This document shows positions 35,641 to 47,739 of a DNA stretch of 48,701 nt, piece by piece. Below the pieces are notes generated by a model that saw nothing but the letters and a program-made list of their open reading frames with translations, made no database searches and was not told the origin of the DNA. The first letter of the stretch is position 1, and the number at the start of each line of letters is the position of its first letter. A program made the position numbers and the translations under genes. The stretch is from contig JACPEJ010000003.1 in NCBI GenBank assembly GCA_016183565.1, forward strand, positions 1 through 48,701. Reading direction: 5' to 3'. This DNA is from Candidatus Blackburnbacteria bacterium (GTDB lineage Bacteria > Patescibacteriota > Microgenomatia > UBA8517 > UBA10165).

Positions 35641-36452
35641 CATTTAAACCTATCCATTTTCATGGTAGCCTGACTATACCTTCACCCACTGAAACAAAAT
35701 GGGTGTCAACGTATTATGAAATGAGGTTTCTCATTTCATCTGTCCCGATGTAACTCGGGACAAGTCGATACGGGGTCAAGTTAATTAGACGATAGATGAT
35801 AGAAAATAGAAAATAGATCTTTGATGATAGAAAATAGACAATGGATTAATAAGTTTTCCAGTTATTCCTTAGGTTGGTAATTTTTCCACCTAAAGCAATA
35901 TACCTTGTAATTAACCCGTTGCAAACATCCTTATTTATAAAACCTAAATCTCTTGCCATGCTTAAATGAACTTCCATTTCATTGCAAGAGCCTAAGGACT
36001 TATCAAGGTGGACCTTAAATTCTTTTTCAAATCTCCTTTTAGCCCACCCTTCTGCAATATTTGCTGGAGGTGATTTAGAGCATCTTCTCAGTTGAGAACC
36101 TAAATCATTTTTCTCATACATTGGAAGTTTTTGACAAAGTTTGTTGACAATAATTGCCAATTCATAACTTTCTTTGTACACTCCCAAATCTTTGAAGCTC
36201 GTTATCATATCTCCATTATCTATCTTCTATCTTCAAATTACTATCTTCTACCCTCTATCATCTACCGTCCACACTAACCGACTTCCCACGGTATTACCCT
36301 GTGTCATTATTTAACTTTGAACCAAATCCAAAGTCAAGTCTGTTTTTGACCTTAAGGGCTCCACCGTTATGAGTTGATATTTCGTTCAAACCACTGGGTA
36401 GTGTTTGAACAACAGCACTCTGACGTTGCCGTCGGAGGACCCCGATATGTTG
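35641..36452 (-). mobile_element. group I intron in 23S after the E. coli U2500 equivalent
   Basis: The exon reads CUACCU|...|CGAUGUCGGCUC. The 5' exon ends in U and the intron ends in G. Core motifs GAAGGUAUAGUC (35672-35683), GACCCCGUAUCGAC (35764-35777) and GGGUAAUACCGUGGGAAGUCGG (36278-36300). Confidence 0.8.
35846..36208 (-). CDS. four-helix-bundle protein (23S rRNA intervening-sequence protein family, TIGR02436-like)
   Basis: 120 aa. FKDLGVYKESYELA, QLRRCSKSPPANIAEGW and GSCNEMEVHLSMA match the family pattern. It lies wholly inside the intron. Confidence 0.88.
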   Translation of the reverse strand: MITSFKDLGVYKESYELAIIVNKLCQKLPMYEKNDLGSQLRRCSKSPPANIAEGWAKRRFEKEFKVHLDKSLGSCNEMEVHLSMARDLGFINKDVCNGLITRYIALGGKITNLRNNWKTY

Positions 36453-37006
36453 AGGTAGCGAACCGCGCCGTCGATATGGACTCTCGGGCGCGACTACTCT
36501 GTTATCCCCGGGGTAGCTTTTATCCGTTAAGCTCGTAGTCTCCCACGAAACTATCGAGGATCACTAGGACCTGCTTTCGCACCTGCTCGGCCCGTCGGCC
36601 TCACAGTCAAGCCGGCTTATGCCCTTACACTTACAGCACGATTTCCATCCGTGCTAAGCCGACCTTTGTACTCCTGCGTTACCTTTTAGCAGGATACCGC
36701 CCCAGTAAAACTGTCCGTTAAACATTGTCCCCGAACCCGTTTGCAGGGCCCTTAGGTAAGATTTAAATTCACCAAAGAGAGGTGTTTCACTGGCCCCGCC
36801 CAAACTTTCTTGCGAAAGAATGTTGGCGGGTCCCTCCTACGCTAAACAATTGGTAAATCCAAATCAATGTCAAACTACAGTAAAGCTCCACGGGGTCTTT
36901 TTGTCCTGGTGTAAGTAGGCCGCATCTTCACGGCCACTGCAATTTCACCGAGTAGAGGTTCGAGACAGCTGCCAACTCGTTACGCCTTTCGTGCAGGTCG
37001 GAACTT

Positions 37007-37210
37007 CATGTTTGTTCTCGCGCTTTCGCGGAGCATGGACTCTCTCTTCCCCCGACGTTACGTCGGGAGGTCAGCGTTTGGTCTCTACGGGGTCAACCCT
37101 TCGATTAACTCAGGGCGACTTCCCTCGGGATTACCGTGTCCACCTGTTGGCGGATTTAGGCTTCCCCGATATAGCTAACATGGGCAATTCTAGCTGCACA
37201 CTAGAGCTTT
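37007..37210 (-). mobile_element. compact ORF-less group I intron after the U1951 equivalent
   Basis: 204 nt. The 5' exon ends ...GUCGGGU and the intron ends ...AACAUG. Core motifs GGUAAUCCCGAGGGAAGUCG (37116-37137), GACCCCGUAGAGAC (37081-37094) and GAAGAGAGAGUCC (37038-37049). Confidence 0.7.
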
Positions 37211-37218
37211 ACCCGACA
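37211..37218 (-). other. 8-nt 23S micro-exon UGUCGGGU (helix 71 5' strand)
   Basis: Joining UUCCU + UGUCGGGU + AAGUUCCGACC reproduces the universal UUCCUUGUCGGGUAAGUUCCGACC. No other GUCGG partner for the CCGAC strand exists nearby. Confidence 0.65.
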
Positions 37219-38259
37219 CAATCTGTTGCTTTTTCTGACCCCACTTAAAGTAGGGCGTCTTGATATTTCTATCAAGATCTGCATGTCGCCATGCAGTTCA
37301 GACTATATTATCTCCGAATTTACTTCAGAGCTTAGCGTGTAGTCGTTGAGGCTCCGAATAAGTTTCTCCAATCTCTCCCTCATTTTGGACAATCGGGAAG
37401 GATACTGATTCATAAAAATCTTTGCAACCCTAAGAACTTCTTTCTTACTACCAACTTCCCAATGGAATAAACCATCATCGCTGCGCTTATGAATATAACC
37501 GCAACCGAGAAAGCTTTTCGCCAACTCGATAATCTTGCGATCTTTCATTGCTACAGCAAAGAACGGTTGTTGGTATAAACCAGATTTCTTTAGGCCACAT
37601 GAACCTTCGGCATCCATGATCCCAGATAAGAAAAAGCCAGTTGCATCGCTATTGTGGCGATTTACCGAGCCTTCTATCTCAAAACCATAGAGTTTAAGAT
37701 TCTTAAGACCCTTACGACATTTTTCTATTACTTCAATCTTGTCTTGAACTTTTGAGTACTTACCGATTGACGGTAAGACTTTTCCTAAAAATTCAAGCTT
37801 CTTGATTGCTATATCTCCCGCAAGAACCGGATAATCTCGAAAAAAGTTGAGAACAAATTCAACTTTTCTTCTACCTCTAAACTTGAGGTTATATCCTCCC
37901 TTAATTGGGCTGATGATTCCTTGTTCTGAAGCAATTACCCGATTAACTTCTTCCAGAAGAAATCGGTCTGCGTTGGAAACAGTTAAATCAGGAGTAAAGT
38001 AAAAACCTTTTCCTTTTTTATGAGTAGCCCGAATTATCGAACAACTCAATTCTCCAACACAAAAACCTGTGTAATAGAACTTACTAAACTCATTCGTTGC
38101 CTGCTGATTATCTGCACTTGAAGCATTGTCAGTTGAAGATGTTGGCATTAATTCCAGTATTAACCGAAATTAACCCAAAGTCAACAACTAGCTCAAGATA
38201 CTCAGACGTTCCAGCATATAGCCAAGTTTTCCCAACATATGGTTGTTGGGTCCCCTTAG
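37219..38259 (-). mobile_element. ORF-bearing intron after the U1943 equivalent (probable group I, class unassigned)
   Basis: The 5' exon ends in U, the intron ends in G (..CAGAUUG), and a GGGGA guide can pair with UUCCU. It lacks the core motifs shared by the other four introns. About 190 nt is non-coding. Confidence 0.6.
37303..38148 (-). CDS. double-motif LAGLIDADG homing endonuclease
   Basis: 281 aa. Motifs YTGFCVGELSCS and FFLSGIMDAEGSCG. Confidence 0.85.
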   Translation of the reverse strand: MPTSSTDNASSADNQQATNEFSKFYYTGFCVGELSCSIIRATHKKGKGFYFTPDLTVSNADRFLLEEVNRVIASEQGIISPIKGGYNLKFRGRRKVEFVLNFFRDYPVLAGDIAIKKLEFLGKVLPSIGKYSKVQDKIEVIEKCRKGLKNLKLYGFEIEGSVNRHNSDATGFFLSGIMDAEGSCGLKKSGLYQQPFFAVAMKDRKIIELAKSFLGCGYIHKRSDDGLFHWEVGSKKEVLRVAKIFMNQYPSRLSKMRERLEKLIRSLNDYTLSSEVNSEII

Positions 38260-46870: not shown

Positions 46871-47081
46871 AGCCATGCAACACCTGTCCTGCACCCTCGA
46901 AGGCGACCCCATTTCTGGGGCTTGCAGCAGGATGTCAAACCCGGGTAAGGTTCTTCGGTTCGTATCGAATTAAACCACATGCTCCACTGGTTGTGCGCTC
47001 TCCCGTCAATTCCTTTGAGTTTTAGCCTTGCGGCCGTACTCCCCAGGCGGCTCGCTTAACGCGTTAGCTATGGAACCCACT

Positions 47082-47225
47082 ACTCGCGCACAGCACGAGT
47101 CAGCCATAAAACAGCAAAGCTGTCTTCAACTTCGTATAAAGCTATTAGGCTATAAAGCTATGATGTCTTTTCTTCATAGCTCTATTGCTTCATCGCTTCA
47201 TCGCTAACTTGTGCTATGCACAAGT
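47082..47225 (-). repeat. hairpin-bounded rRNA mini-insertion, copy E7 (core type A, h26 region)
   Basis: actcgcgc-aca-gcacgagt at 47082-47100 and acttgtgc-tat-gcacaagt at 47207-47225. Confidence 0.8.
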
Positions 47226-47275
47226 AACAGATCCCTAGCGAGCATAGTTTACGGCTAGGACTACAGGGGTCTCTA

Positions 47276-47739
47276 CAAGTTTGTTGCACAAACTTAAATT
47301 CAAAATTTAAAGTTCAAAATGCAAAATTACATTTTAAAATTAAAGGTTGAAAAAGTTTCGGCTAAGACATTTCTGCTCAGCTCTCCATGTTGCCATGGAG
47401 GTCGGACTATATCTTCATCCCGAGCTAAGCTCGGGAGCCGACGTGTAGTCTCTACGGGGTCAAGTTACTATTGAGGCTAGACAGTAGAAACTAGATGTTA
47501 GAACTTGATGCTAGATGTTTGAGCCTAGTAGGTGCTTTACAAACTTCTAAATCACGAAACGTCTTTTATCATCAAGCATCGACCTTCTAACTTCAAGGTC
47601 GAACTTCTAATTTCCATCGTCTAACCTCAACATAACCGACTTCCCTCGGTATTACCCTTCGACTTTGTTCAGGGCTTCACCGATACAGTTGGATTTTCTC
47701 ACGTAGTGTTACCACTACGGGGGACTAGAGACAAGCTCC
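47276..47739 (-). mobile_element. ORF-less group I intron in 16S after the U788 equivalent
   Basis: Exons read GCGAAAGGGAU | ... | UAGAGACCCCUGUAGUCC. P1 is GGGAU/GUCCC and P10 is GUCUCUA/UAGAGAC. Core motifs GAAGAUAUAGUCC (47404-47416), GACCCCGUAGAGAC (47448-47461) and GGGUAAUACCGAGGGAAGUCGG (47636-47659). Confidence 0.82.

Follow-up and report, generated by a model that had tools for sequence, protein, structure and literature searches.

Insertion sequences in the rRNA genes of Candidate Phyla Radiation (CPR) bacteria were reportedly described by Brown and colleagues in 2015. In the 23S rRNA gene of Coxiella burnetii, two group I introns (L1917 and L1951) are said to surround an exon of 34 bp, according to a 2007 report of Raghavan and colleagues. 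In fungi and algae, group I introns of the nuclear rDNA have reportedly spread by reverse splicing, as described by Bhattacharya and colleagues in 2005. The subject of this study is a set of four group I introns in the genes for 16S and 23S rRNA of a Candidatus Blackburnbacteria genome (885 kb, 5 contigs). The rRNA operon is located on the contig JACPEJ010000003.1, and this entire 48.7-kb contig is referred to as the window. The introns are named S788, S1060, L1951 and L2500 after the 16S (S) or 23S (L) rRNA nucleotide which they follow.

In CPR bacteria, insertions were found in 48% of the 16S and 82% of the 23S rRNA genes, with group I introns at many sites, open reading frames (ORFs) of the LAGLIDADG_1 to LAGLIDADG_3 and IVP families, as well as group II-like, LAGLIDADG-bearing elements at the 16S position 1400 (Tsurumaki et al. 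2024, PMC11270868). The LAGLIDADG_1 positions in 23S rRNA included 1917, 1931, 1952, 2593, 2604 and 2657, and position 1943 was not mentioned; ribozyme subtypes and the kinship of introns between sites were not treated in that work (PMC11270868). Archaeal introns at positions 2500 and 2593 of the large subunit (LSU) rRNA, which carry an endonuclease gene in P6 (paired and joining regions are denoted P and J), were classed as subgroup IA3, and the Rfam model RF00028 was determined to be insensitive for these subtypes (Nawrocki, Jones and Eddy 2018, PMC6125680).

The window resembled the published CPR insertions (PMC11270868) in having many introns per gene, in the occupation of several 16S sites and the 3' half of 23S, and in short hairpins similar to intervening sequences (IVS). 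It also contained LAGLIDADG_1, LAGLIDADG_3 and 23S_rRNA_IVP ORFs and a group II-like LAGLIDADG element at the 16S position 1400. With the archaeal IA3 introns (PMC6125680), the family of the four introns shared the site L2500 (and L2593 in the comparison set), the endonuclease gene in P6, the weak general Rfam scores, and Woese- and Pacearchaeota hosts among the motif-bearing loci. In contrast to the archaeal introns, the family was also present in 16S (U788 and U1060), two members lacked P7.1 and P7.2, and one member had an IVP cassette instead of an endonuclease. As in C. burnetii, two group I introns which are independent and belong to different families were located close to each other, one of them at L1951; however, the intervening exon was 8 nt long and the upstream intron was inserted at U1943. 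Similarly to the nuclear introns of fungi and algae, one family was distributed over many rRNA sites and had its guides adapted to each of them, whereas the hosts were prokaryotic, endonuclease genes were present and moves within the genome were not supported.

The four introns most probably represent one widespread prokaryotic family of rRNA introns, in the form of old, site-bound lineages which were independently acquired or retained (probability about 0.75). The exons were mapped on Escherichia coli 16S and 23S rRNA, and the numbering offsets were calibrated with landmarks: 23 nt were missing from the 16S copy ahead of position 515, and an offset of +2 applied to 23S (helix 69 and the 2500 region). 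The determined coordinates are presented in Table 1.

Table 1. Coordinates of the introns, their ORFs and the other insertions of the rRNA operon and the genome.
Feature	Coordinates	Strand	Location	Size	Remarks
S788 group I intron	47276..47739	-	after 16S U788	464 nt	no ORF
S1060 group I intron	46068..46870	-	after 16S U1060	803 nt	ORF in P6
L1951 group I intron	37007..37210	-	after 23S U1951	204 nt	no cargo
L2500 group I intron	35641..36452	-	after 23S U2500	812 nt	cargo cassette in P6
LAGLIDADG_3 homing-endonuclease-like ORF	46189..46743	-	P6 of S1060	184 aa	PF14528, E 2.1e-10
23S_rRNA_IVP four-helix-bundle ORF	35846..36208	-	in L2500	120 aa	PF05635, E 3.7e-24
L1943 group I intron, other family	37219..38259	-	after 23S U1943	1041 nt	281-aa LAGLIDADG ORF 37303-38148
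S1403 insertion	44846-45735		after about 16S C1403	890 nt	LAGLIDADG_1 ORF 45348-44785
Short hairpin insertions (not introns)	47081-47225, 48308-48438, 35258-35354, 40038-40128, 39233-39287, 44626-44688		16S, 23S, spacer		
AU-rich long hairpin insertions	38461-38585 and 40411-40533		23S		93.5% identical over 123 nt
tRNA group I intron	C3:55040-55285		interrupts anticodon loop	242 nt	RF00028 61 bits

All four introns followed an exon-final U and ended in a terminal G (omega G), with the 3' ends ...ACUUG, ...ACGUG, ...ACAUG and ...AAAUG. In each of them, a guide upstream of P2, read from the sequence, paired with both exons. The exon-final U was located opposite a guide G in a P1 of 4-5 pairs, and P10 consisted of 5-7 pairs. 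The S788 guide GUCUCUA-GUCCC had the partners UAGAGAC and GGGAU, and the S1060 guide GAUGAU-GGCCG the partners GUCGUC and UGGCU. In the case of L1951, GAAUU-GCCC paired with AGUUC and GGGU, and in the case of L2500, AUAUCG-GGGU paired with CGAUGU and ACCU. The preliminary description of the window had placed the four insertion sites exactly, had written the S788 and S1060 pairings in the same way, and its view that the guides are fitted to every site was borne out. The same applies to the cargo which it had listed: a four-helix-bundle ORF in L2500, none in L1951, a LAGLIDADG ORF in S1060 and a long hairpin in S788. The cargo was located in P6 in three of the four introns. The long P6 hairpin of S788 was found at about 47625-47470 in the fold, and the stop codon of the S1060 ORF fell within the P7 strand. 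On either side of the IVP ORF of L2500, a 7-nt repeat was present in mirror-image runs (36219-36264 and 35786-35831; Tandem Repeats Finder (TRF), period 7 in both), which form the long P6 stem.

The RF00028 model matched the four introns with 46.3, 44.1, 29.8 and 28.5 bits (E 3e-9 to 6e-4), and its alignment of L1951 spanned P3 to P9. P3 could be recognised by eye in each of the four introns, with one A.C mismatch in S788, and a P3-P9 core with the P3/P7 pseudoknot was present in each. In a 12-row alignment of the family, 89% of the cells were paired, compared with 35-48% in the controls with slid partners, and compensatory changes were detected at 12 pairs. Among the four introns of the window, P4 showed covariation, with U-A in S788 and L1951 and A-U in S1060 and L2500. 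P6 consisted of GGG/CCC with an AA bulge in all the members.

The strings shared by the four introns were assigned to this core, namely to P4-P5-P6, J6/7-P7 and J8/7-P7. GGUGAAGCC corresponds to P4, J4/5 and P5; GGGUAAUACCGNGGGAAG to P5', J5/4, P4' and the beginning of P6 (GGG, the AA bulge and GUC); GACCCCGUAGAGAC to P6', J6/7 and P7; and GAAGRUAUAGUCC to J8/7 and P7'. The versions of the motifs were GGGAAGCAAAG and GCCCCGUAGAGAC in S1060, GGGGAAGCC, GGUAAUCCCG and GAAGAGAGAGUCC in L1951, and GGUGGAGCC and CCCCGUAUCGAC in L2500. Shared blocks among the four introns were also recovered by blastn with E values of 1e-3 to 2e-7. The three motifs reported earlier were thus present, although less uniform than stated, and the CCCGA..UCGGG hairpin of L2500, which had been taken together with the others, was determined to be P7.1 and not P8. 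P7.1 and P7.2, the helices located between P7 and P3' in subgroup IA, were detected in S1060 and L2500 and were missing in S788 and L1951; both states occurred across the family. The 3' tail of S788 contained P9.1 and P9.2.

In L1951, two pairs of P7 were replaced by C.A and A.G, the corresponding U-A and A-U being present in 106 and 104 of the 107 family members, respectively. The J8/7 of this intron was also altered, with AGAGAG in place of AUAUAG. L1951 may be a weakened ribozyme, located in what is apparently the only 23S gene of the genome.

The relatives of the four introns were collected by a motif scan with the query GGTAATMCCGNGGGAAG in one genome per GTDB species, which gave at least 120 loci. 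At least about 86 of the 124 matches listed carried the upstream P4/P5 string together with the downstream core. Two nhmmer models, one for the 5' and one for the 3' module, were built on the 12-row alignment with introns from other genomes. Their matches were joined into 125 site-labelled family members, from which 155 match columns were extracted, and 147 core columns were used as the tree input; this large alignment is sequence-based, and the structure was checked on the 12-row alignment alone. According to flank mapping and profile searches, the family occupies at least 13 sites: L1951, L2449, L2473, L2500, L2504, L2511-2513, L2593, L2656, S328, S788, S1060, about S1080 and S1498. The hosts among the matches listed were Patescibacteria, Actinomycetota, Dormibacterota, Chloroflexota, Eremiobacterota, gammaproteobacterial metagenome-assembled genomes (MAGs) and DPANN archaea.

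In the window, the profiles matched exactly S788, S1060, L1951 and L2500, with both halves and E values of 5e-13 to 2.6e-7. L1943 was missed, and the tRNA intron was touched only marginally, by the 3' half alone (E 0.007). The restriction of the matches to these four introns indicates that they are specifically related at the family level. The single shared scaffold proposed earlier therefore holds at this level, with the same helix order and P6 cargo in three introns. About half of the letters in the shared strings belong to the generic group I consensus. The shared sites, the host groups and the P6 cargo suggest that the family is IA3-like, and with its sites this putative IA3-like family spans at least bacteria and DPANN archaea.

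The in-genome pairs aligned over 37-74 nt only in blastn with masked cargo, and their P2, P3, P5, P9 and tails were unrelated. In contrast, the alignments with same-site introns of other genomes were far longer. L2500 and the L2500 intron of the genome G013, which belongs to the same order, aligned over 298 of 328 nt with masked cargo and were 85% identical in the core. The two introns were sisters with a Shimodaira-Hasegawa-like approximate likelihood ratio test (SH-aLRT) value of 99 and had the guide, P2, J6/7 (GUAUCGACU), P7.1, P7.2, P8 and the tail in common. The best match of S1060 was the S1060 intron of a Daviesbacteria locus (L116), with 83% and 70% identity and 246 of 288 nt aligned. 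ORFs homologous to that of S1060 (43% and 36% identity) were found in introns at or near S1060 of the loci L027 and L040. S788 aligned over 204 of 304 nt with the S788 intron of an actinobacterium (Solirubrobacteraceae, locus L011), sharing P2, P3, P8, P9 and P9.1, and it was also collinear with the S788 introns of the genomes G024 and G007. In the tree, L1951 was nearest to an L1951 intron of Saccharibacteria, the guide, P3 and P5 being common to both; the same-site link of L1951 is weaker than those of the other three introns. The 16S rRNA of the hosts of these relatives was only 81-87% identical to that of the window, which indicates that the shared site lineages are probably old.

Each intron would fold a P3-P9 core and pair its own guide with the local exons through P1 and P10. 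The self-splicing from the single-operon rRNA presumably starts at the U.G pair and ends at the terminal G. The introns would have reached the genome, or stayed in it, through descent and through homing from genome to genome, driven by endonucleases. A LAGLIDADG gene is still present in S1060, S788 and L1951 lack one, and L2500 has the four-helix-bundle cassette instead of an endonuclease. The family has probably switched sites many times, in the deep past and not inside this genome, and reverse splicing may have been the route of these changes. The cargo of P6 would evolve apart from the ribozyme.

Several observations weigh against the reading of the four introns as old site lineages. All four RF00028 scores were below the gathering cut-off of 50 bits; the matches were split by the ORF and hairpin cargo. 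The comparison set consisted of the matches listed by one exact-motif scan and of 20 loci from relatives. The top BLAST match of S788 was an intron at another site (locus L068), the same-site actinobacterial intron being the second, and the best BLAST match of L1951 was an S1498 intron and not a same-site one. In about 17 sampled relatives, neither an S1060 nor an L1951 intron was detected. The phylogeny with related introns, which had been proposed as a check, gave the pairing of L2500 with its G013 counterpart, and the core tree was poorly resolved, with 9 of the 121 branches starred. The four introns did not form a clade in the free tree, and such a clade was not rejected by the approximately unbiased (AU) test (p=0.39). 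In addition, an identity confined to this genome was observed for two helices, namely the P6 base of S788 and L2500 and the P8 of S1060 and L1951.

The last observation points to a tentative alternative, in which old site lineages have exchanged helices or cassettes between co-resident introns in short tracts via the flanking core blocks and have become mosaics. The P6-base 13-mer GGGAAGUCGGUUA and 15-mer UAACUUGACCCCGUA were found only in S788 and L2500 of the window (about 1.05 Mb of comparison loci), and the L2500 orthologs in G013 and G024 have another P6, which is common to both. The 17-mer P8 hairpin CCCGACGUAACGUCGGG was present only in S1060 and L1951, with two occurrences in the 885-kb genome and none in the comparison loci. 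Moreover, the IVP ORF of L2500 was 61% identical to the ORF in the Daviesbacteria S1060 intron, the ribozyme of which is the closest to S1060 of the window. However, the identical tracts are short, perfect or nearly perfect palindromic hairpins with few free positions, so they may have arisen by convergence, and hairpins of the CCCGA..UCGGG type occur frequently in both rRNA and introns. The P8 of S788 is also identical to the 16S helix 40, but a nearly equal P8 is already present in an actinobacterial S788 intron, which indicates that such identities can arise without exchange. The likeness of the P6 bases may reflect two independent insertions of a hairpin repeat which is also present at C3:99055 and C5:20046. 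The exchange of the P6 base between S788 and L2500 and of P8 between S1060 and L1951 by short-tract conversion is considered doubtful.

The P8 of S788 (47403-47419) and the 16S helix 40 (45965-45981) consist of the same 17-nt perfect palindrome, CCCGAGCUUAGCUCGGG. The copying of this P8 from helix 40 was set aside due to the almost identical P8 of the actinobacterial S788 intron, and the identity is probably a coincidence. An apparent closeness of S788 and L2500 in blastn was rejected as well: the score of 118 bits decreased to 38 bits after the P6 cargo was masked, the higher value being caused by the purine-rich arms of the hairpin, which are part of a dispersed repeat. Long purine-rich hairpins without an ORF, similar to the L2500 stem (35780-36271), were detected at C3:99055-99200 and C5:20046-20151 and in the locus L121 of another genome. 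A related purine-rich hairpin with a weaker likeness was present in the P6 of S788. These observations fit a movement of cargo cassettes, and perhaps of single helices, between introns.

The preliminary description had suggested an intragenomic spread, in which one ribozyme, once copied to new rRNA sites here or in recent ancestors (through reverse splicing, for instance), had its guides retailored. The common scaffold and cargo position are in accordance with it, as are the four-intron clade left standing by the AU test and the absence of S1060 and L1951 from the sampled relatives. The six in-genome pairs had core identities of 0.63-0.74, and those among S788, S1060 and L2500 (0.71-0.74) lay high within the family range (mean 0.653, 10th-90th percentile 0.58-0.73). 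However, as a set these pairs were no closer than the family mean. The introns of the genome ranked 9th to 113th among each other's neighbours, with 8-112 closer relatives in other genomes. Thus, they were neither nearly identical nor mutual nearest relatives, as would be expected of one recent lineage within a genome. In comparison, the recent hairpin copies of the same operon were 93-96% identical, versus 63-74% for the four introns.

The same was observed for co-resident family members in general, which were not more alike than others. In the 24 genomes with several members, the within-genome pairs (n=42) had a mean identity of 0.658 and the between-genome pairs 0.651, and the nearest neighbour was found within the same genome for only 2 of the 57 introns. 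The presence of P7.1 and P7.2 in two introns and their lack in the other two, the short in-genome alignments, and the distribution of the family over its many sites also argue against copying. The same-site orthologs of L2500, S788 and S1060 occur in hosts with 81% 16S identity or in other phyla, and L2500 is paired with its G013 counterpart in the tree. A spread inside this genome or its recent ancestors is thus very unlikely, and this part of the preliminary description is not upheld.

It is even harder to accept that the four introns share a generic group I core alone, with no specific relatedness: RF00028 reads GGguAAuCCGCAG, AGACUAAAcG and gAAGAUAUAGUC at these places, and the other two group I introns of the genome also carry P7 strands (AGAGACUAGAUG and GAAGAGAUAGUCC in the tRNA intron, ACGACUACACG and AUAUAGUC in L1943), but the profiles from introns of other genomes match exactly the four, whereas L1943 is missed and the tRNA intron has no match in its 5' half, the exact P5'-P4'-P6 string stands in the same flanking context in at least about 86 introns, and the bulged P6 is found in every member.

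The rRNA operon is located on the minus strand, with the 16S gene extending from the contig end (48701) to about 44715, followed by tRNA-Ile, a 3-kb spacer, tRNA-Ala, the 23S gene (about 40860 to about 35250) and 5S. The spacer between tRNA-Ile and tRNA-Ala (41143-44229) carries ORFs on the same strand, for a serine hydrolase, a MazG/PRA-PH-like protein and a 257-aa product without a Pfam match. A partial second 16S sequence, 84% identical to that of the window, was found at a contig end (C2:1-539 of the genome); this represents either a second, divergent copy or a contig of another organism in the bin.

The earlier list of introns was correct in its four entries and lacked two insertions of the same operon, the group I intron at U1943 and the insertion at about C1403. 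The L1943 intron is upstream of L1951, and the two are parted by the 8-nt micro-exon UGUCGGGU (37211-37218) alone. Its matches to the L1917, L1923 and L1931 introns of relatives suggest that L1943 is IB4-like. The genome G008 has an 88%-identical intron at the same U1943 site and no L1951 intron, which indicates that the two introns are independent. At U788, the loci L146 (genome G001) and L144 (genome G029) of two relatives carry an intron with an L1943-like core, but with P9.1 and a terminal hairpin like those of S788 in the window; one site may thus be occupied by differing cores whose tails are similar.

The S1403 insertion does not end in G and was found in 7 sampled relatives. It had a weak match to the Rfam group II model D1-D4 (45357-45474, 28 bits, E 0.11) and corresponds to the '16IS9' elements of CPR, which are group II-like and carry an endonuclease. 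A seeming extra insert of 70 nt after 16S C1403 was determined to be the 3' end of this insertion.

The short hairpin insertions have conserved end hairpins, CUUGUGCAUAGCACAAG ... CUCGUGCUGUGCGCGAG. The copies in the 16S helix 26, the 16S 5' domain and the 3' end of 23S were 94-96% identical, which indicates that they are recent intragenomic copies in this operon. End hairpins of the same kind were observed in the AU-rich 23S hairpins, the scores of which with Rfam plant microRNA precursors are due to chance. The tRNA gene interrupted by the group I intron (C3:55006-55320) was assigned by ARAGORN to Asn with the anticodon GUU, and the intron is IC3-like, a different type.

The known picture of rRNA introns in CPR bacteria, in which rRNA genes with multiple introns have already been published, is not changed by these results. 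The weakened P7 of L1951 and the candidate helix exchange are the sole points which a specialist might follow. The analysis separates the presence of one ribozyme family at many rRNA sites from a burst of copying within one genome, and the former holds here. The ribozyme and its cargo, whether an endonuclease gene, an IVP cassette or a hairpin, evolve as separate modules. If the exchange of helices were true, the ribozymes of one rRNA operon would evolve partly in concert while keeping their site-specific guides and tails.

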